Shown in pieces: positions 16,509 to 27,752 of a stretch of 36,177 nucleotides of DNA. Source of the stretch: Minisyncoccota bacterium (GTDB taxonomy: Bacteria; Patescibacteriota; Minisyncoccia; Phycocordibacterales; UBA9973); the NCBI GenBank assembly GCA_017992215.1, contig JAGOOZ010000002.1:1-36177 (forward strand), in the 5' to 3' direction. Below the pieces are notes generated by a model. That model searched no databases. It saw only the letters and a list, made by a program, of their open reading frames with translations, and had not been told where the DNA came from. Positions within the stretch are counted from its first letter, which is position 1. Each line of letters opens with the position of its first letter. A program made the translations under genes and the position numbers.

Positions 16509-18908
16509 ATGGCCACAAAGAAAACACCCCAGAAGCGACTTGTCCTTCTTGATACTCATGCGATTATTCATCGGGCATATCATGCATTGCCTGAATTTAT
16601 GAATTCAAAGGGTGAACCAACGGGTGCTATCTATGGACTTGCTACGATGCTTTTCAAAATCATTAGCGAACTCTCACCTGACTATATTGTGGCGTGTTAC
16701 GATTTACCTAAAAAGACATTTCGACATGAAGCCTATGATGGCTACAAAGCAGGCCGAGCAAAAACTGATGACGCTCTTGTTGCTCAGCTGATTCGCTCTC
16801 GTGAATTTTTTACTGCATTCTCAATTCCCATGTATGAATGTGAAGGATTCGAGGCCGATGATTTACTCGGAACTATTTCAACGCATATTGTAAAAAACAA
16901 TGAACCAATCGATGTGATTATTGCCTCTGGCGACATGGACACACTTCAACTCGTCGATGATGCTCGGGTTCGTGTATATACACTCAAGAAGGGGATTAAC
17001 GATACGATTCTCTATGATGAAGAAAAAGTCATCGAACGATTTGGGTTTAAACCAGTGTACTTACCAGACTACAAAGGTCTTCGTGGTGACCCCTCTGATA
17101 ATATTATCGGTATCAAGGGTATTGGAGAGAAAACAGCGACGACGCTTATTGGAGCATTTGGTACTATCGAAGAATTGTATCGCGTAATAAAAAAAGACCC
17201 TGAGCGGGTTCGAGCACTTGGGATAACAACTCGAGTAGTGGATCTTTTAATTTCTGGTGAAGACGAAGCGCTCTTTTCAAAAACACTTGCGACAATTCGT
17301 CGCGACGCACCAATTCATTTTTCTACACCGACAACAACGTGGAAAGAAAACCTCCACACAGAAACAGTTGCTCAGTTTTTTCAAACAATGGAATTTCGTA
17401 GTTTACAGAATAGACTTACTACACTTCTCTCTGATGGAGAAAATACCGCGGAAGAAAAAGAAGCCCCAGTTGCCCCACTTGTTGTTACAGAGGGAGACGA
17501 AGAGCTTTTTATTCATGCACAGATTGCACTGTGGCTTCTTGATTCAGATAAGACAGACCCTCGCCTTGAAGATATTTTTGCATATACGAAAAAACAAACA
17601 TTAAGAGAAGCGCTTTCTATTCTCGAGGAGCGTATCAAGAAAGAATCTCTTCTGTATGTCTATCGAGAGATTGAATTACCAATTGTTCCAATTATTAAAG
17701 AAATGGAAACCTCTGGGATATTGCTCGATACTGCCTACCTCTCAAAACTTTCAAAAGAATATCACAGCGATCTTTCAAAACTAGAAAAAGAAATATGGAA
17801 ACTCTCAGGTAAAGAATTTAATGTGAATTCCCCAAAGCAATTAGGAGAAGTGCTGTTTGATGATATGGGGCTTTCAGTGAAGGGGATGAAGAAATCAGCG
17901 GGTGGAGCGCGCTCGACTCGTGAAAGTGAACTCGAGAAACTTCGGGATTTGCATCCTATTATCGGGAAGATTCTCGAGTATCGTGAACTTCAGAAATTAC
18001 TTTCAACATATATTGATACACTTCCGGATACTCTTCTAGATGATGGGAGGTTGCACGCACGATTTATTCAGACAGGTACAACAACAGGACGTTTTTCTTC
18101 GAGTAATCCAAATCTCCAAAATATTCCAATCAAATCAGAGCGTGGTAAAAATATCAGACGAGCATTTATTGCAGAGAAGGGGTATGTGCTTGCATCATTT
18201 GATTATTCACAAATCGAACTTCGTGTTGCAGCGCTTCTTTCTCAGGACGAATATTTTATCAAAGCATTTCGTGATGGTAGAGATATTCATCAGGCTGTCG
18301 CGATGAAAGTATTTGGTGTTGGTGAAAATGAAGTAACACACGACATGCGACGCAGAGCAAAGGTTATTAATTTTGGTATTCTCTATGGTATGGGCGTGAC
18401 TGCTCTTCGTGCAAATCTTGGTACTGACAGAAAAGAAGCACAGGCATTTTATGATAATTATTTTGCACAATTTCCATCAATAGCAGGGTATCTTGAGAGT
18501 ATCAAGAATTTTGCAAAGAAACATGGATACACGGAGACGCTTTTTGGTCGTCGAAGGTATTTCCCAGGGATTAAATCAAGCATTCCCTTTATGAAGGCAA
18601 TGGCTGAACGGATGGCAACAAATGCCCCGATTCAAGGGACTGCAACAGCTGATATTATTAAAATTGGCATGAAGCGTGCACATGATGAATTAGTAAAAGC
18701 TGGTATTATCTCGGGTGTTCGACTCGTGCTCCAGGTTCACGATGAATTGGTATATGAAATCAAAGAGGAATTGCTTGATCAGGCAAAGGGTCTTATTGAG
18801 AATGCAATGAAGAATGCCATTCCAAATGAATTTTTGGAAAATTTAGAACCCGTTCCTCTTCAGGTATCATCAGATACAGGGCATAATTGGGGTGCAATGA
18901 AGGAGTAG
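16509..18908 (+). CDS. polA: DNA polymerase I
   Basis: 799 aa with an N-terminal 5'-3' exonuclease/FEN domain (LLDTHAIIHRAYHA, GIKGIGEKTA) and family A polymerase motifs (DYSQIELRV, RRRAKVINFGILYGM, QVHDELV). Confidence 0.95.
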   Translation: MATKKTPQKRLVLLDTHAIIHRAYHALPEFMNSKGEPTGAIYGLATMLFKIISELSPDYIVACYDLPKKTFRHEAYDGYKAGRAKTDDALVAQLIRSREFFTAFSIPMYECEGFEADDLLGTISTHIVKNNEPIDVIIASGDMDTLQLVDDARVRVYTLKKGINDTILYDEEKVIERFGFKPVYLPDYKGLRGDPSDNIIGIKGIGEKTATTLIGAFGTIEELYRVIKKDPERVRALGITTRVVDLLISGEDEALFSKTLATIRRDAPIHFSTPTTTWKENLHTETVAQFFQTMEFRSLQNRLTTLLSDGENTAEEKEAPVAPLVVTEGDEELFIHAQIALWLLDSDKTDPRLEDIFAYTKKQTLREALSILEERIKKESLLYVYREIELPIVPIIKEMETSGILLDTAYLSKLSKEYHSDLSKLEKEIWKLSGKEFNVNSPKQLGEVLFDDMGLSVKGMKKSAGGARSTRESELEKLRDLHPIIGKILEYRELQKLLSTYIDTLPDTLLDDGRLHARFIQTGTTTGRFSSSNPNLQNIPIKSERGKNIRRAFIAEKGYVLASFDYSQIELRVAALLSQDEYFIKAFRDGRDIHQAVAMKVFGVGENEVTHDMRRRAKVINFGILYGMGVTALRANLGTDRKEAQAFYDNYFAQFPSIAGYLESIKNFAKKHGYTETLFGRRRYFPGIKSSIPFMKAMAERMATNAPIQGTATADIIKIGMKRAHDELVKAGIISGVRLVLQVHDELVYEIKEELLDQAKGLIENAMKNAIPNEFLENLEPVPLQVSSDTGHNWGAMKE

Positions 18909-18943
18909 CACAAATCATAATCTGTGGTACGATACACGTATAT

Positions 18944-19432
18944 ATGGATACACACGAAAAGGTAAAAGCAGACTCATCATATGCAATACATATGGTCCTC
19001 TCTCATTCATACACAATGTTTATGCTCGCACTTGTTGCTGGGCTTGTTCTTCATCTTGTGTTTGAAATACCACTTTTTGTATCTGGGGCATATCAGTATC
19101 TCGGGGTGGTGTTGATTATTATAGGGACATATCTTGTCTGGTGGGCTCAATCAACAACAAGAAAAACAAAACAAGAAATGAGCCAAACACAGCCTTCTCG
19201 TGATTTTGCTCGTGGCCCATACAAGTACAGCCGTAATCCTACACACATTGGGCTCACACTCACAACGCTCGGTCTCGGACTTATCTTGAATTCTTTTTTT
19301 ATTTTTGTTGTGACGATTATTGCATCACTTATTTCGAAATATATTTTTATTAAAAAAGAAGAAGCACTTCTTGAGGAAAAATACGGCGATGAGTATCGTG
19401 AATACAAGAAGACAGTGAGTACATGGGTATGA
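18944..19432 (+). CDS. membrane methyltransferase of the isoprenylcysteine carboxyl / phospholipid methyltransferase-like family
   Basis: Polytopic protein. C-terminal region GPYKYSRNPTHIGL...EEALLEEKYGDEYREYKK matches the ICMT/PEMT-type signature. Start moved to the ATG at 18944 (the upstream part overlaps the polA end). Confidence 0.7.
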   Translation: MDTHEKVKADSSYAIHMVLSHSYTMFMLALVAGLVLHLVFEIPLFVSGAYQYLGVVLIIIGTYLVWWAQSTTRKTKQEMSQTQPSRDFARGPYKYSRNPTHIGLTLTTLGLGLILNSFFIFVVTIIASLISKYIFIKKEEALLEEKYGDEYREYKKTVSTWV

Positions 19433-19576
19433 TCCCGTTAGAGACCCTGCCTTTGCCGGCAGGCAGGCGCGGTCGTAGTAAAAAATACAATGGATGTCTT
19501 TAAAACAAAAGTAGAAATTATAAATAAACAAAACAGTGTTGCGTTACGGACCGCGACCTGTCTCTAACGGGATGAT
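19429..19576 (+). mobile_element. MITE-like inverted-repeat element, copy A (138 bp plus ATGAT duplications)
   Basis: Left: CCCGTTAGAGAC 19434-19445, CGCGGTC 19468-19474. Right: GACCGCG 19549-19555, GTCTCTAACGGG 19560-19571. Direct ATGAT at 19429-19433 and 19572-19576. The second copy is at 23107-23234. Confidence 0.6.
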
Positions 19577-20219
19577 ATATATACTCTTTGGAAATGATAC
19601 AAAAAGTAAACGAGCCTACGTCTCGACGCTTGTTTTGGACGGGGAAGTCCTCAGGCTTTCATCTTCTGATATTTCAAAAGAATTACTTGAAAAGTATTCA
19701 CAGACAAAAAGTTTGTTTGATGATTCTCCCATAGTGATTATTGAAAATATGCTCGGGGAAACAGAGTGTATTACCTCAGCAAAAGAAATGGAAAAACTTT
19801 CTTTATCTTCGACACTTTTTATCTTACTTGAAGATGCGCTTCCCGTTGCGGTAGAAAAAAAATATGCAAAACATGCAACGATTATTCGTTTTGATGAAAA
19901 GATAGTATCAGAAAAAACAAAAATAAATACATTTGCTATCGCTGATGCATTTGCTCGTCGAGATAAAATGACTGCATGGATAGAGTATGGGCGAGCTGTT
20001 GATGCAGGTATTGAGCCAGAAGCGCTCTCGGGAATTCTTTTTTGGAAAATAAAAATGTTATTACTTGATGGTTCACGAGTATTTTCTCGAGAAGAACTTG
20101 CACGGTGTTCTTCTCGTCTTGTGTCACTGTATCATCGTTCACACAGGGGAGATGTTGATTTTACGATTGGACTTGAACAGTACCTTCTCGAATCTCTTTC
20201 ACCTGTTTCTAAAAAATAA
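19572..20219 (+). CDS. holA: DNA polymerase III delta subunit-like protein (short HolA)
   Basis: MIYILFGND... start. The segment FAIADAFARRDKMTAWIEYGRAVDAGIEPEALSGILFWKIKMLL resembles HolA domain III. Start set at ATG 19572, because the upstream 12 codons of the track ORF are repeat-element sequence. Confidence 0.5.
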   Translation: MIYILFGNDTKSKRAYVSTLVLDGEVLRLSSSDISKELLEKYSQTKSLFDDSPIVIIENMLGETECITSAKEMEKLSLSSTLFILLEDALPVAVEKKYAKHATIIRFDEKIVSEKTKINTFAIADAFARRDKMTAWIEYGRAVDAGIEPEALSGILFWKIKMLLLDGSRVFSREELARCSSRLVSLYHRSHRGDVDFTIGLEQYLLESLSPVSKK

Positions 20220-20489: not shown

Positions 20490-20507
20490 GTGCCCTCGGT
20501 AGGAATC
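20490..20507 (-). repeat. 18-bp exact duplicate of the tRNA-Lys 3' end
   Basis: GTGCCCTCGGTAGGAATC at 20490-20507 is identical to 20642-20659 (T-loop to discriminator of tRNA-Lys, plus 1 nt). Confidence 0.8.
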
Positions 20508-20521
20508 TTTCATTACATGAA

Positions 20522-20600
20522 CAGTATACCTTTTCAGCTCGCAGGGTGCGAGCAAAGAAAAGCTTTTCGATTCCTACACACAAGCAAAATGATTTGCTTG
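20522..20600 (+). repeat. structured module, copy L (contains a T-arm-matching segment for tRNA-Lys)
   Basis: Blocks are CAGTATACCTTTTC (20522-20535), hairpin GCTCGCA-GGG-TGCGAGC, GAAAAGCTTTTCGATTCCTACACACAAGC (20557-20585), and hairpin CAAGCAAA-ATGA-TTTGCTTG (20581-20600, with 20581-20585 shared with the preceding block). Collinear with 27561-27641 (minus) and 36100-36177 (plus). Confidence 0.5.
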
Positions 20601-20635: not shown

Positions 20636-20642
20636 ATTCGGG

Positions 20643-20715
20643 TGCCCTCGGTAGGAATCGAACCTACGACCATCTCCTTAAAAGGGAGCTGCTCTACCGA
20701 CTGAGCTACGAGGGC
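20643..20715 (-). tRNA. tRNA-Lys (anticodon UUU)
   Basis: Hand-folded 73-nt cloverleaf: GCCCTCG/CGAGGGC acceptor, GCTC/GAGC D-stem, anticodon loop CTTTTAA, T-arm GTAGG-TTCGATT-CCTAC, discriminator A. CCA is not encoded. Confidence 0.9.
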
Positions 20716-20856
20716 ATATAATAAACAAAGCTAATTATCACATATTCAGTTGAAACCGCTACGACTGAACTATAAGGGTATATCTTTATAACGTGTAAAA
20801 AAGATTTTACTTGTGAAAATTCTCTTTTACACGTACACTCAAAAATATCACACTTT

Positions 20857-22532: not shown

Positions 22533-23111
22533 TTATTTTCCTCCTAAAATTTTGAGTGCTTCTTTGATTCGTGCATTTGTTCCTTCGATAGAAGGGGGGA
22601 TTTGCTTGAGTGCATCACGAGCTTCGTTTTGTGAATAGCCGAGAGCTTTGAGGGCTTCGATGATATCACTTTCTTCTCGAAGCACACCTGGTGTGTGGCT
22701 ACCACCAGTATGTGCTTTTAATTTATCACGTAGTTCGAGAACTATTTTATCCGCTGTTTTTCTACCAATACCAGAAACCTTGTTGAGATAGCTTGTGTCA
22801 CCAGTTGCAATCGCTTTTTTGAGTGTATCAATTGAAGCGACAGCGAGAATCGAGAGGGCAGACTTGGGTCCAATACCAGAAACATCAAGGAGGAGTTCGA
22901 AGAATGATAATTCATCTATCGTTGCGAATCCATAGAGGTCGAGAGAGTTTTCGCGGACAGCCGTATATGTCCAAAGTGCGACCGTGTCGCCCATGCCATA
23001 TGCACCCACAGTATCAGTTGTAATAAATACTTTATATCCAACACCATTAACGTCAATAACGAAAAACTTGTCAGTCGTATGAATAATAGTGCCTTCGATT
23101 CGTGCAATCAT
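22533..23111 (-). CDS. ruvA: Holliday junction DNA helicase subunit RuvA
   Basis: MIARIEGTI... N-terminal OB domain, HhH motifs (VSGIGPKSA, VSGIGRKTA), and C-terminal domain III. Confidence 0.93.
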   Translation of the reverse strand: MIARIEGTIIHTTDKFFVIDVNGVGYKVFITTDTVGAYGMGDTVALWTYTAVRENSLDLYGFATIDELSFFELLLDVSGIGPKSALSILAVASIDTLKKAIATGDTSYLNKVSGIGRKTADKIVLELRDKLKAHTGGSHTPGVLREESDIIEALKALGYSQNEARDALKQIPPSIEGTNARIKEALKILGGK

Positions 23112-23234
23112 CCCGTTAGAGACAGGTCGCGGTCCATATGTAAGGAACCGTTTTGCTGTGTTGTGAAAATAAGTAAATAATTAAATGTATACCCGTATTT
23201 AGTAAACCGTGACCGCGGTCTCTAACGGGATCAT
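23107..23234 (-). mobile_element. MITE-like inverted-repeat element, copy B (118 bp plus ATGAT duplications, inverted relative to copy A)
   Basis: Plus strand: CCCGTTAGAGAC 23112-23123, AGGT, CGCGGTCC 23128-23135 ... GACCGCG 23211-23217, GTCTCTAACGGG 23218-23229. ATCAT at 23107-23111 and 23230-23234 (ATGAT on the minus strand). Confidence 0.6.
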
Positions 23235-23540
23235 GTGTATAGTATACTCGTTTTTTGATAATTTAGAGAGCGTTTACTTTTCTGATTTTTTCTGGTATTG
23301 TTACTAGGTTCTTATATGTCTGTGTCTCAGATTTGTAAGATTACTATCCCAGCCCCATAATTTGAAAGACATACGAGGGGTGAAGCGCTTAGCGAAAAAC
23401 TGGTTGGCCTATTCGGCCCCGCGCTTCAGATAGCAATACGTGTTCATTTTAATGTTTATCTATACTTATTATTAAATTAATGAAATTATGGAGCGGGATG
23501 ACAATTTTTATAGTCGTTCCACTCCTTAAAAATCAGTCAC

Positions 23541-24307: not shown

Positions 24308-24379
24308 GGTCCCGTCGTTCAATGGATAGGACGTAACTTTGCGGAAGTTATGATGCAGGTTCGATTCCTGCCGGGATCA
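24308..24379 (+). tRNA. tRNA-Arg (anticodon GCG)
   Basis: Hand-folded 72-nt cloverleaf: GGTCCCG/CGGGATC acceptor, GTTC/GGAC D-stem, anticodon stem TAACT/AGTTA with loop TTGCGGA, T-arm GCAGG-TTCGATT-CCTGC, discriminator A. CCA is not encoded. Confidence 0.85.
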
Positions 24380-24444
24380 CAGAGTCGAGTGCTAGTTCGA
24401 GCACTCGACAAGGGTCATCAAATACCTTTGTTATAAAGAACAAC

Positions 24445-24479
24445 AAAAATAGCTAACGAGATAATCGTTAGCTATTTTT
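24445..24479. terminator. bidirectional intrinsic terminator after the recombinase gene
   Basis: AAAAATAGCTAACGA, loop GATAA, TCGTTAGCTATTTTT. Confidence 0.75.
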
Positions 24480-24495
24480 GTTTGAAAAGTTAGTT

Positions 24496-25779
24496 TTACG
24501 CTTTAACTGTTATGATCTTATTTTTCAAAACTAGATCGTTTTTTATACAATCAAGAACCGATCGTTTTTCTAAAATTGTTCCGTCTTTCAAAACGAACTT
24601 CATGTAATTTCTGAGATCAACTTTCTGTATATCAGCTGGGTTGTCCTTTCCTAAAAACATCGCTTGAAGCTTTTTGAATTTCTTGATTTCAAGATTCAGC
24701 TTTTCATTAAGTTGTACTTCATTAAGGTCCAAAGTTCCTGCCATTTTCTGAAATTCTTTTAATAAGTCATCTTCGTTTATTGCAGGATTTGTGCATTTTC
24801 TATCTTTAGATTTAGTACATCTATAATAGACATGTCTATTTACTCCGCCATTTAGTAATTTCTTAAATTTCTCGTCTGCCGTAATACCTGATCCGCACAT
24901 TCCGCACTTCACCATTCGAGTAAACGCAAACTCTTTTCCATGAGTTTTTATAACCTGCGTTTTGATTGCTGATCGGCAATCATCAAAAAGTTCCTTGCTA
25001 ATTATTGGCGTATGCTTTCCGTCGTACCAGTTTCCACTGCCTTGTGGAAACTCAAATCGTCCGTAATAAAAGGTGTTGTTGATTATTTTAAATACATTTC
25101 CAAGACTTAGATAAAACCCTCTATGTGTTTTGAAATTCAGTTCATACCGTAACCATGAGTATACTCTCATTCCGCTCCACCGTTCGTATGCGATTTTCTC
25201 AAAAATCTGTTTAATTACTGGTGCTCGTTCGGGATCAATCTCTACTTCGCATTTCGCTAGTCTCTTGTTTGATTTCCTGTATCCAGTTGGCGGTTGTACT
25301 GGCCATAATCCCATTTCGCACCGTGCTCTCATTCCTCGCTTCACATTGATACTCTTGTTGTCATTCTCTAGTTTTGCTTGAGAGCATAAAATCATCAAGA
25401 GGAATTTATCACTTGGCGAATTAGTAAATGTTTGCCCGAATGTCTTGATTTGAGTTAACTTCTTTTGATCAATACGATCCACCAACTTTCCCAAATCTCC
25501 AGCATTTCTTGAAAGACGATCTGGTGCCCAGGTAATAATTGCGTTGAATATGCCGTCGTCTATGTCTTTTAGTATTTCCTCAAACACGGGTCGTTGACCT
25601 GACTCTTTTGCACTATGAGATTCACGACGGATCTCTACCACATTCAAACCTTCACGCTCTGCTATTTGGCTCATTTCCTTGACCTGGGAATCAATGGAAA
25701 GGGCTTGCTTTTCTTCGTCTTCGGTTGATTTGCGGGCGTATAAGCAATATTTAAGATTATCTTTTATTATTTCTGTCAT
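24496..25779 (-). CDS. large serine recombinase (resolvase/invertase catalytic domain, recombinase domain, zinc ribbon)
   Basis: N-terminus LYARKSTEDEEKQALSIDSQ (catalytic Ser context), DRLSRN motif, a central recombinase domain, and a Cys cluster (CGMCGSG...YYRCTKSKDRKC). Its 3' end lies 116 bp from tRNA-Arg. Confidence 0.9.
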   Translation of the reverse strand: MTEIIKDNLKYCLYARKSTEDEEKQALSIDSQVKEMSQIAEREGLNVVEIRRESHSAKESGQRPVFEEILKDIDDGIFNAIITWAPDRLSRNAGDLGKLVDRIDQKKLTQIKTFGQTFTNSPSDKFLLMILCSQAKLENDNKSINVKRGMRARCEMGLWPVQPPTGYRKSNKRLAKCEVEIDPERAPVIKQIFEKIAYERWSGMRVYSWLRYELNFKTHRGFYLSLGNVFKIINNTFYYGRFEFPQGSGNWYDGKHTPIISKELFDDCRSAIKTQVIKTHGKEFAFTRMVKCGMCGSGITADEKFKKLLNGGVNRHVYYRCTKSKDRKCTNPAINEDDLLKEFQKMAGTLDLNEVQLNEKLNLEIKKFKKLQAMFLGKDNPADIQKVDLRNYMKFVLKDGTILEKRSVLDCIKNDLVLKNKIITVKA

Positions 25780-25897
25780 ACATATATTGATGACAGAGAA
25801 AGATAGTTTTGCTAAGACTATGCAGAACTAGATATACGTCGCATACTCGCAAATAGCTTTTACCTCTTTATTTTAATCTATTTTGTGATATAGTAAC

Positions 25898-26040
25898 TTT
25901 ACTACATATTGAAGCCTGTGAACCACTGACAAGGGGGAGGCAACGATACGGAGCCAGAGAAAAAAGTAGGGTGGCACCGCGATATACTATCGCCCCTGCG
26001 AGCTTATCAACATAAGTTCGAAGGGGCATTTTTGTTCCTT
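25898..26040 (+). promoter_or_regulatory. T-box riboswitch leader (transcription attenuation) for aspS
   Basis: Conserved T-box sequence AGTAGGGTGGCACCGCG (25965-25981). Terminator stem 25992-26027 (GCCCCTGCGAGCTTAT...ATAAGTTCGAAGGGGC), whose 5' half overlaps the antiterminator 3' strand, followed by a T-tract at 26029-26034. Candidate specifier GAC-A at 25928-25931. Possible extended -10 TGATATAGT just upstream. Confidence 0.8.
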
Positions 26041-26054
26041 CATCTCTAATAAAT

Positions 26055-27347
26055 ATGATTATAAGAACCTATATTAAAGACATTCCTGAATATTCAGGGA
26101 AAGAGGCTACTATCGTAGGCTTTGCTCACACTATTCGTGCGCAGAGTAAAATTGCATTCCTTATCGTTCGCGATGTGACTGGCATCTTACAGACAGTCGT
26201 TACCGCTGAACAGGTCGAGGCTTTTCAAATTGCTAAGGAACTTAGCACAGAATCAGTATTGAAGGTTACAGGTCTCGTGAAAGAGGCAGCGCAGGCACCT
26301 AGTGGTTATGAAATAGAAGTTAGTACAATTGAAGTACTTTCATCTGCCGATGCGCAGCTACCGATACCAATTCTTGAAAAGAAAGGCGGAGAAGAAACTG
26401 AAGCGCCTATACGTTTCGACTATCGTTGGATTGATCTTCGCAAGCCCGATCATCTAAAGATTTTCAAAGTATGGACGGAACTTGAAAAAGGCTTCCGTGA
26501 CTACTGGGATAAAAATGATTTTATTCAAATCTATACACCTTCATTTATGTCAACGCCAAGCGAAACTGGCGCTGAGGTATTTGAAGTAAACTACTTTGAC
26601 CGCAAAGCATATCTTGCACAATCACCGCAATTCTATAAGCAAATGGCTATTGCAAGTGGTTTTGAAAAAGTGTTTATGACAGGCCCCGTATTCCGCGCAG
26701 AGCTTTCATTTACTACTCGACACCTTACCGAATTTACTGGTTGGGATTTTGAAATGGCGTACATTGAATCTCATCAAGACATCATTGTTGCCGAGGAAAA
26801 CATGATTGTTTCCGGATTTACTAGATTAAAGGAAAAGTTCCCAGAGCTTCGTCTAGAAATCCCTAGTATGCCTTTTCCGCAGATCACTATGGTTGAAGCA
26901 AAAAGGATACTTGCAGAGCGTGGCGTGGCAAGCGGAGAAGAACACGATCTCTCTCCAGAAGAAGAACGGGCTATCAGTGAATATGTGCGAGAAAAACACA
27001 ACCACGACTTCGTATTCATTACTGAATACCATGTATCAAAAAGTGCCTTTTACCATATGCGCAACGAGGAGGGTCGTGGCAAGCGCGCAGACCTTTTGTT
27101 TAAAGGAATCGAAGTAACAACACTCGCTCAACGCGAACATCGCATTGAGATTCTTGAAAAACAAGCAAAGGAAAAAGGGATGTCATTTGAAGAACTGAAA
27201 GATTATCTCAACTTTTTCCGCTGGGGATGCCCTCCACATGGAGGTGCAGGTATTGGCCCTGGACGATTCATTATGAAAATCCTCGACCTGCCAAACGTTC
27301 GCGAGGCGACTTATCTTCCAAGAGATGTTAAGCGATTAAATCCATAA
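26055..27347 (+). CDS. aspS: aspartyl-tRNA synthetase, archaeal/eukaryotic-type (class IIb, about 430 aa)
   Basis: N-terminal OB anticodon-binding domain, AYLAQSPQFYKQ, motif 2 FRAE..T.RHL.EF, QREHR, and C-terminus GCPPHGGAGIGPGRFIMKILDLPNVREATYLPRDVKRLNP, which matches the archaeal-type AspRS ending (FPRD..RL.P). Confidence 0.92.
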   Translation: MIIRTYIKDIPEYSGKEATIVGFAHTIRAQSKIAFLIVRDVTGILQTVVTAEQVEAFQIAKELSTESVLKVTGLVKEAAQAPSGYEIEVSTIEVLSSADAQLPIPILEKKGGEETEAPIRFDYRWIDLRKPDHLKIFKVWTELEKGFRDYWDKNDFIQIYTPSFMSTPSETGAEVFEVNYFDRKAYLAQSPQFYKQMAIASGFEKVFMTGPVFRAELSFTTRHLTEFTGWDFEMAYIESHQDIIVAEENMIVSGFTRLKEKFPELRLEIPSMPFPQITMVEAKRILAERGVASGEEHDLSPEEERAISEYVREKHNHDFVFITEYHVSKSAFYHMRNEEGRGKRADLLFKGIEVTTLAQREHRIEILEKQAKEKGMSFEELKDYLNFFRWGCPPHGGAGIGPGRFIMKILDLPNVREATYLPRDVKRLNP

Positions 27348-27357
27348 TAGTAAAAAT

Positions 27358-27382
27358 GTTACAGCAATCTGTAACCTTTTTA
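27358..27382 (+). terminator. intrinsic terminator after aspS
   Basis: GTTACAG, loop CAAT, CTGTAAC, then CTTTTTA. Confidence 0.75.
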
Positions 27383-27392
27383 CTTAAACCTG

Positions 27393-27442
27393 TGTCACTT
27401 TTGTCACTTTTTGTCGCTCGACAAGGTTCATTTAGGTATAAT
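27393..27442 (+). promoter_or_regulatory. phased TGTC(A/G)C triple repeat upstream of a consensus TATAAT
   Basis: TGTCAC 27393-27398, TGTCAC 27402-27407, TGTCGC 27412-27417 (9-10 bp phasing), then TATAAT at 27437-27442. No ORF follows. Confidence 0.35.
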
Positions 27443-27512
27443 GAAAATGCATGAAAAAGCCTTGTGGAGTAAGGAACCCCACGGTCGCACCACGACTAGG
27501 CTCACCCGTTAG

Positions 27513-27548
27513 AAAAAGAGCTGTCTTTGATAGACAGCCTTTTTCTTT
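27513..27548. terminator. bidirectional terminator-like hairpin inside the structured region
   Basis: AAAAAGA-GCTGTCT, loop TTGAT, AGACAGC-CTTTTTCTTT. Confidence 0.6.
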
Positions 27549-27752
27549 GGGTGATCCCGAAGAAGACATCTGCATGTCTTCTGTGCAGGAATCGAAAACC
27601 TTTTCCGTGTGAGTGTACTCACGAACGGAAAAGGTGTACTGATCCTGTGATTGAGTACAATCACCTACTGGGTAAGGGTCGATATGCGTACTCGCGGTCC
27701 TACCGTTGGTGTTGTTTTGATTACAAAACCACCAATCACGCGCCGTTGGCGA

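Follow-up and report, generated by a model that had tools for sequence, protein, structure and literature searches.

A MITE-like element family placed at the start codons of unrelated genes in Patescibacteria

Directly 5' of holA, the gene for the delta subunit of DNA polymerase III, a 138-bp inverted repeat separates the gene from the methyltransferase gene before it in a 36,177-nucleotide stretch of contig JAGOOZ010000002.1 from a Minisyncoccota bacterium (the whole of this stretch is called the window here). The question that this locus raises is how such a palindrome came to lie at the very first codon of an essential gene, and how it can be tolerated there. [quoted passage not shown] I propose, with a probability of roughly 0.7, that this element (copy A, 19434-19571) and a second one in front of ruvA (copy B) are non-autonomous elements of the MITE type that belong to one widespread family of the Patescibacteria (Parcubacteria/Paceibacteria), and that this family is docked at start codons in a manner compatible with translation.

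All features of copy A that had been described at first are present, base for base, where they had been placed, and all lie on the plus strand. The gene for a methyltransferase of the PEMT/ICMT type (18887-19432, 181 amino acids according to the list of open reading frames (ORFs), with PF04191, PEMT, found on its orthologues) ends in the TGA at 19430-19432, which is located inside the left copy of a direct duplication, ATGAT (19429-19433). The element starts with the outer left inverted repeat CCCGTTAGAGAC (19434-19445), which includes the tip CCCGTTAG, and continues with a 22-nt GC hairpin module (CCTGCC..GGCAGG, 19446-19467), which is optional in the family and lies between the outer and the inner repeats, and with the inner left repeat CGCGGTC (19468-19474). 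After a variable core with an A-rich sense strand (19475-19548) follow the inner right repeat GACCGCG (19549-19555), the 4-nt spacer ACCT, which is found on the right arm only and marks the orientation of the element (19556-19559), and the outer right repeat GTCTCTAACGGG with the tip CTAACGGG (19560-19571). The right ATGAT copy (19572-19576) carries the start codon of holA (19572-20219, named after its homologues and its kept synteny), and the A of this codon can pair with the T at 19433; HolA homologues of 211-215 amino acids begin at the 19572 ATG. The window contains the exact 12-mer of the outer repeat four times, once in each arm of copies A and B, and when up to two mismatches are allowed seven matches are found against 1.18 expected, a number not attained in any shuffle. 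As RNA, copy A is predicted to fold with -58.6 kcal/mol (z = -5.9 against shuffles). The first-pass annotation had the holA ATG locked in this stem of about 19 bp, which is not the case: the ATG adjoins the stem on the 3' side, and in the predicted fold pairing with the terminal AT of the left flank is possible for no more than the first one or two of its bases.

Evidence for an insertion comes from orthologous loci that do not carry the element. In two lineages (L101 and L104, HolA about 53% identical) the gene order polA-PEMT-holA is kept, the stop codon of PEMT and the start codon of holA share an ATGA, and the DNA reads TGGGTATGATATA, with no element between the genes. The empty site that had been predicted from the window sequence, GGGTATGATATAT, is present in relatives. 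For copy B, an empty orthologous site is found in L107, which reads TATAAT-agagct-ATGATTGC, with the -10 box 6 nt before the ruvA ATG. A search with a covariance model, built from 81 copies of the family, found no element in about 42 kb from the lineages with empty sites (L104, L105, L107 and L108). An alternative by which the hairpin is an ancestral and conserved leader of holA, perhaps similar to a riboswitch, and no insertion took place at all, is refuted by these empty sites and retains next to no probability. The stable fold is all that speaks for it, whereas a different variant occupies the same site in a 96%-identical relative, copies precede more than 100 unrelated gene families, and the element has no match in Rfam. 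At gathering thresholds, no Rfam match was obtained in the window except for two tRNAs, and in a permissive scan the best match of the element had an E-value of 8.1.

Copy B lies about 3.5 kb from copy A and is read from the minus strand (23112-23229, 118 nt, covariance-model score 83.8 bits). Its host gene is ruvA (22533-23111, minus strand, with the domains RuvA_N, HHH_5 and RuvA_C), towards which it is oriented in the same way as copy A towards holA: read along the minus strand, it has the polarity of copy A, with the ACCT spacer on the ruvA-side arm. The extra GC hairpin of copy A had been noted as a difference between the two, and copy B is indeed without it. The ruvA start codon is carried by the right ATGAT copy (23107-23111, minus strand, as judged from the empty site in L107), and the left ATGAT copy, read from the sequence, is found at 23230-23234 on the same strand. 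Six nucleotides upstream of the left ATG stands a -10-like TATACT (23241-23246, minus strand), which is the spacing of a leaderless promoter, and the L107 orthologue has TATAAT, 6 nt and ATG. The predicted fold of copy B is more stable than that of its shuffles (z = -4.85), and the stems of the two copies range from -41 to -59 kcal/mol. Its embedded reading frame is only 9 codons long and ends at a TGA that overlaps the host ATG. The covariance model detects copies A and B in the window and no others.

Copies outside the window were collected from the GTDB species genomes with the exact right-end 20-mer CGCGACCTGTCTCTAACGGG. This resulted in 95 stretches with 98 copies from 67 different species assemblies, and many of them show the same flank logic as copies A and B. 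Judged from the organism names of the records, nearly all carriers are Patescibacteria (many names of metagenome-assembled genomes are generic), and the named groups are Kaiser-, Zambryski-, Taylor-, Jorgensen-, Nomura-, Azam- and Yonathbacteria and 'Paceibacterota'. A start codon is found directly 3' of the element in 89 of the 98 copies (ATG in 76, GTG in 13), and in 79 of these 89 it opens an ORF of at least 50 codons. When elements are identified by their 8-nt tips only and in any orientation, a start codon adjoins 96 of 118 on one side and 4 on both, and the other 18 have none. The covariance model added about 20 further, more diverged matches in the collected loci, and 15 of 21 examined are directly followed by ATG or GTG. 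At start-codon copies the orientation with respect to the gene is fixed, with the ACCT-spacer arm on the gene side. An ATGA stop/start overlap as in copy A is observed in 15 of 84 copies, and 36 of 84 have, as copy B, no same-strand gene end within 60 nt. Tandem arrays are found as well: L090 has four consecutive elements and L006 has two.

The genes that follow the element have little in common. The 77 host genes yielded 108 Pfam families, none of which occurs more than twice, and they include ribosomal protein S20, GTPases of the EF-G type, tRNA synthetases, TIM, GAPDH, aldolase, topoisomerase and MurJ. These unrelated housekeeping hosts rule out a gene-specific regulatory leader. Placement at the start codon is a rule of the family, which holds for 85-90% of the copies, and not a lucky neutral landing. 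I found no publication that describes this element family in literature searches, and it is apparently undescribed so far.

What is duplicated at these sites is the beginning of the host gene. Its initial 4-6 nt recur on the far side of the element, where the left flank ends with ATGNN(T), the same as the first bases of the ORF (for example ATGGAT on both sides, or ATGCGT, or ATGTAT), and in 69 of 96 copies the duplicated flank follows the host ORF, with freely varying second-codon bases. The 5-bp duplication of the first-pass annotation stands for copies A and B, given a 12-bp repeat, though these two can alternatively be fitted with a 3-nt duplication and a 13-bp repeat; it cannot be extended to the family, as I found no single scheme that fits all copies, whether 5 nt, 4 nt with a 13th repeat pair, or a variable 3-5 nt. 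The base to the left of the element can be matched as a pair with the first base of the start codon, being T-A in 76 cases, C-G in 16, T-G in 2 and another combination in 2, and a C-G pair goes with a GTG start of the gene. In several of the C-G copies the left duplicate is still ATG and the gene now starts with GTG, which suggests that this pair belongs to the element, with a 13-bp repeat and a 4-nt TGNN duplication. The few copies that are not at start codons show 4-nt duplications of the form T..A, namely TAAA, TTGA, TCAA and TTCA. A different pattern is observed in a minority of copies, in L008 (2765-2900), L072 (740-820), L017 and L085 (3550-3690), where the host ORF's first bases reappear in the left flank as their reverse complement, such as GCGCTCAT to the left and ATGAGCGC to the right of the element, or TGTCAT and ATGACA; the duplication model does not account for these.

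That the family moves, or did so until recently, can be seen from a sister strain, the flanking DNA of which is about 92-96% identical to that of the window. Between its ruvA copy and copy B, 9 of 118 positions differ, which agrees with the divergence of the flanks, and its holA copy is identical at 118 of 118 positions to its own ruvA copy (L099, L100 and L113 against L111 and L112). The holA variant of the window, copy A, differs from the one of the sister strain by the extra hairpin and by a core that cannot be aligned with it. The presence of different variants at one holA site means either that two close lineages were invaded independently or that the occupant was replaced, and together with the identical copies at holA and ruvA in the sister strain it indicates that the family has recently been mobile. 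In addition, paralogues with cores that are 85-97% identical are found at unrelated genes of the same genome (L019/L098, L031/L070, L093/L096 and L012/L057). The insertion is of the MITE type and mobile now or very recently.

Regarding the means of this mobility, the earlier statement that the window has no transposase for the element was borne out within the scope of the tests; apart from a large serine recombinase (24496-25779, minus strand), encoded 1.3 kb from copy B on a small islet, no recombinase is present. I rejected this enzyme as the mobiliser, as its islet is missing from the sister strain that has the fresh copy. Tip pairs at a distance of 0.4-3 kb, as expected for an autonomous version, were only found as chance 8-mers inside genes in all loci, and the right-end 20-mer matched none of the viral contigs.

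The assembly of several metagenome contigs stops at the element or within it, which is expected because the element is a repeat. The Logan contigs L002 and L003, which are independent, both start exactly at the first C of copy B, and the JGI contigs L112 and L113 terminate at or inside the element. In the sister strain, the contig breaks are explained by its identical second copy. In the window strain, the branch of the graph at copy B could come from a further copy, from an allele without the element or from a product of excision.

The observed placement could also be brought about by a plain selfish MITE with a short and loose target, such as TNNA or ATGNN, if the start pattern and the frames described below were merely what survived selection. 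Copies away from start codons, with their T..A duplications of 4 nt, agree with this, as do the freely varying second-codon bases of the duplication and the 20 of 93 copies that have no frame to the right end. However, such short targets are far more common in intergenic DNA, and yet 85-90% of the copies are located at starts and in one orientation. Moreover, the freshest copy, identical at all 118 positions, is also located at a start codon, and two variants have struck the same holA site in close relatives. A loose target combined with selection does not easily yield this start occupancy in a single orientation, or repeated hits at the same codon, and I consider this explanation unlikely, though not to be neglected.

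The structure of the element is maintained throughout the family. The 8-bp tips CCCGTTAG and CTAACGGG are essentially invariant, the outer stem comprises 12-13 covarying base pairs, the inner stem comprises 7, and a 4-nt spacer is present on one arm. Compensatory changes are seen at positions 9-12 of the outer stem and in the inner stem (for example AGGC/GCCT, AAAC/GTTT, AAGT/ACTT, and CGCGATC/GATCGCG). Among 28 distinct arm pairs, 6 stem pairs have changed on both sides, and the covariation score is 0.26 compared to 0.154±0.012 in shuffles, none of which reached as high (0 of 500); the signal is lost when the partners are slid against each other. The deviations from pairing in the stem are not balanced, with 21 G-U against 7 A-C mismatches. 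Most copies are 103-138 nt long, with a mode at 115-116 nt. The 22-nt hairpin module of copy A is also present in L034 and L070, and the L070 copy differs from the one in L031, of the same genome, mainly by this module.

Such conservation would also be expected of a domesticated cis-regulatory RNA hairpin, comparable to the Correia elements, which would be co-transcribed, then cleaved by RNase III or bound by a protein, and would set the stability or translation of the mRNAs of many unrelated genes, so that mobility would account for its spread only. The very stable stem (z about -5 to -6), the strict conservation of the tips in 67 species with diverging cores, the fixed orientation with respect to the gene and the excess of G-U over A-C mismatches all fit this description. 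However, the host genes lack a common functional theme, and close relatives lack the element at the same genes with no obvious consequence. Conserved tips are equally expected from transposase binding, and a processing site cannot be shown by sequence alone. I consider regulation as the primary role of the element improbable.

The family shows a number of structural variants besides the standard form. In L063 (1989-2060) and L005 (6732-6803), 72-nt variants have two GC hairpins in place of the A-rich core, and these are found at sites that are not starts, with TAAA or TTGA duplications. A solo stem of 27 nt is found in L059 (3745-3771), and a copy of 288 nt with extra nested hairpins in L034 (4028-4315). 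In L009, L017, L022, L063 and L012 (903-1020), the left inner repeat is relocated to a position beside the right inner repeat, where the two form a local hairpin (GGTCGCGG..CGCGACC) that replaces the long-range inner stem. This alternative hairpin could also arise in many of the standard copies, as they contain another CGCGG-like motif a short distance upstream of GACCGCG.

A possible explanation for the tolerance of the element before essential genes is found in its core. This had been described as AT-rich and variable, which agrees with its composition (40% A and 28% T on the host-gene strand, with 148 ATG against 72 CAT), but the core is more than filler, as it usually holds an ATG frame that runs to the right end. 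A frame of at least 10 codons that begins at an ATG in the core, crosses the right arm and reaches the host start is present in 67 of 93 copies, compared to 32±4.3 when the cores are shuffled (maximum 46) and to 20 on the reverse strand. The most common class (38 of 93, copy A included) ends with ..(T/I)ATCL at the TAA of the right repeat, which leaves 4 nt to the host ATG; in copy A, this is the small ORF MDVFKTKVEIINKQNSVALRTATCL (19490-19567, plus strand), with its TAA in the right outer repeat. In 23 of 93 copies the frame is that of the host gene and adds ..RPVSNG before the Met or Val, most often with 17 residues in total, and in 7 of 93 it ends at a TGA that overlaps the host ATG, as in copy B. 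All of the GTG-type copies that were classified (11 of 13) belong to the in-frame class. Frames that start inside the element are 30 codons long or shorter. Among related copies the frame and its length are kept and the peptide changes, for example in a six-member subfamily with frames of 19 codons, which would be expected if the act of translation matters and not the peptide.

The left flank has its own potential start. In copy A, the orphaned ATG of the left ATGAT opens a frame of 24 codons through the left arm (19429-19503, plus strand, as read from the sequence). Translation from the left ATG through the whole element, considered as a rule for the family, was rejected, as the lengths show no preference for multiples of three and the frame stays open as far as the element's end, or past it, in only about 12 of 80 copies. 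The stop of the left-ATG frame is located within ±15 nt of the internal ATG in 31 of 65 copies, which is suggestive, with controls that are too weak for a claim. Some cores show -10-like motifs by eye, at inconsistent spacing to the internal ATG, and a promoter inside the elements was not detected either as a consensus match in copy A or above background near copy B. In copy A, an in-frame GTG at 19536 gives rise to an ORF of 227 amino acids (19536-20219, MLRYGPRPVSNG followed by HolA), and the exact HolA product of 215 amino acids is not on record in the gene-call collection; holA may therefore have been extended into the element by gene callers.

The context of the host genes indicates where transcription could begin. 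In none of 80 copies is a tetramer similar to a Shine-Dalgarno sequence present 5-11 nt before the left ATG, and the hexamer TANNNT peaks at a spacing of 6-7 nt before it (18 copies). The genes of the window are similar in this respect, with a Shine-Dalgarno-like motif in 2 of 28 and TANNNT at 6-7 nt spacing in 9 of 28. The scarcity of the former and the spacing of the -10 motif make many host genes look leaderless, so that their start codon would also be the start of transcription, and from its sequence the transcriptome of the window is suggested to be largely leaderless. For the lineages that carry the element, this hints at genes that mostly have no leader and few Shine-Dalgarno sequences.

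How an insertion at this point could leave the gene active may be pictured as follows. The element would be transcribed as part of the host mRNA, and the duplicated ATG would keep a start at the old position, be it the 5' end of a leaderless transcript or, as for PEMT and holA, the overlap with the upstream TGA. Ribosomes that start at the left ATG, or at an ATG in the unstructured A-rich core, would translate the right arm and thereby melt the hairpin; in copy A, the frame from the left ATG would end 9 nt after the start of the embedded ORF. They could then terminate at the TAA of the right repeat and reinitiate at the host ATG 4 nt further on, or continue in frame into the host gene. Reinitiation at holA would preserve the coupling between PEMT and holA. 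The insertion would thus not silence the gene, and sites before essential genes would be tolerated. The choice of start codons could be due to a transposase acting in trans, to retention, or to both. I consider it a possibility, somewhat short of an even chance, that the insertion machinery itself recognises start codons and that the element carries a translational relay, by which it colonises essential genes and does not silence them.

Several observations weigh against the proposal of a start-docked and translation-compatible MITE family. Neither the window nor about 690 kb of loci nor the viral contigs yielded an autonomous partner or a transposase. A fixed length cannot be given for the duplication, and to fit most copies one has to assume either an additional T or a 4-nt duplication combined with a 13-bp repeat. 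No frame to the right end is present in 20 of 93 copies, the frame of copy B has only 9 codons, and neither a Shine-Dalgarno sequence nor a promoter is evident for the internal ATG. The excess of G-U mismatches weakly favours selection at the level of RNA, and inverted repeats that are recognised by a protein would covary too. Finally, the collection with an exact 20-mer favours well-kept copies, a bias that the covariance-model matches lessen and do not remove.

With respect to known systems, the perfect 12-bp terminal inverted repeats of copies A and B, the duplication with its empty sites, the small size and the lack of an internal transposase are those of a MITE, as are the two copies in the window and the near-identical copies at unrelated sites of one genome. 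I file the element as a MITE whose placement rule is unreported and which has a translational interface built in. In its working, the closest analogue is the Correia element (CREE/NEMIS) of Neisseria, which has 100-150 bp, terminal inverted repeats, a short duplication and many copies near genes, and is co-transcribed as a long hairpin; it is not known to have a transposase. Size, terminal repeats, short duplication and many copies beside genes are shared with the family described here. However, Correia elements duplicate TA, have repeats of 26 bp and show no link to start codons or to a particular orientation, whereas here the duplication begins with ATG, the repeat CCCGTTAGAGAC is unrelated, and the frame ends at the host ATG. 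The Rickettsia palindromic elements (RPE) are mobile palindromes that are tolerated through their compatibility with translation; they insert inside coding regions and add residues to the protein. The in-frame class (23 of 93) resembles them in that it adds residues to host proteins, but the present family is located at the first codon and has more often a separate small ORF that stops before the host ATG. The passing of ribosomes from a short upstream frame to the next start has its counterpart in the termination-reinitiation coupling of bacteria (ATGA or TAAnnnnATG).

Short palindromic hairpin repeats with many copies per genome are also known as REP/REPIN sequences, which depend on RAYT, a protein of the IS200-like type. 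REPINs have no duplication and carry a GTAG head, in contrast to the host-derived direct duplication and the empty sites here, and this duplication rules out the REPIN reading. No HUH transposase is found among the top 25 Pfam families listed for the window. The PATE elements derived from IS200/IS605, with subterminal hairpins and neither terminal inverted repeats nor duplication, were rejected as well, as both are present here. In the IS1380 and piggyBac types, CC(C) tips occur with duplications of 4-5 bp, and piggyBac has split repeats with unequal spacers. The CCCG...CGGG tips and the T..A duplications of four bases fit these loosely, as a lead only, but no such transposase was found in this work, and the repeat sequences are unrelated to any that I can name. 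Landing at a defined point of initiation is known from yeast Ty3, a eukaryotic retroelement that inserts at the start sites of RNA polymerase III and is tethered there by transcription factors. The landmark in the present family is the start of translation, which would be that of transcription as well if the gene is leaderless.

The split repeats raise the question whether the element could be a folded recombination site, of the integron attC type or of another site-specific recombinase, that marks exchangeable cassettes. Paired outer and inner repeats, an unequal spacer that marks the strand and a variable centre that measures about 60-140 nt are indeed shared with attC, GTTAGAG and CTCTAAC resemble the core sites of attC, and the serine recombinase gene is 1.3 kb from copy B. 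However, the order is mirrored, 5'-GTTAGAG ... CTCTAAC-3' instead of 5'-RYYYAAC ... GTTRRRY-3', and the element is located 5' of fixed, syntenic housekeeping genes and not 3' of cassettes, with no integron integrase present. Furthermore, the flank duplication follows the sequence of the host ORF, and the recombinase islet is absent from the sister strain that still gained a copy. The attC reading was rejected, and the probability of a recombination site of any kind appears very small.

If insertion is indeed aimed at start codons, this would be a targeting rule that is unreported for bacterial transposons and would allow tests of how an initiation site is sensed by mobile DNA, and the element would be a natural device that rewires the translation starts of many genes. 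The family also shows how a selfish element can survive in bacteria with the most reduced genomes, ahead of essential genes, among them holA, ruvA and those for ribosomal protein, tRNA synthetases and glycolysis. Some copies switch the start of the host gene to GTG, or lengthen the host protein by about 17 residues. In practice, the element breaks assemblies (L002, L003, L112 and L113) and may mislead gene callers, as at holA.

The remaining observations concern the surroundings of the two copies. The islet with the serine recombinase covers 3.2 kb (24382-27582) directly after tRNA-Arg (24308-24380) and also encodes a protein similar to class II aminoacyl-tRNA synthetases (26055-27347). It is absent from the sister-strain contigs L111 and L112, in which position 24381 joins 27583, and the segment is probably a small integrated islet. 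A potential third copy of the element at 27440-27560 was rejected, as CCCGTTAGAAAA is a chance partial match to the tip with no hit of the covariance model; the same segment has a promoter-like box TAGGTATAAT, an ATG frame of 21 codons and a terminator-like hairpin (agagctgtc..gacagcc and a T run). From its domains DnaA, DnaN, YidC, Jag (R3H), RuvB and RuvC, the window is probably located near the replication origin. Between the two copies, 17 nt of the 3' end of tRNA-Lys (20640-20716) are repeated about 150 nt from the gene (20491-20507), similar to the scar of an integrated element, and a 28-nt inverted repeat, 89% complementary (20557-20584 and 27578-27605), connects the tRNA-Lys region with the right edge of the islet.

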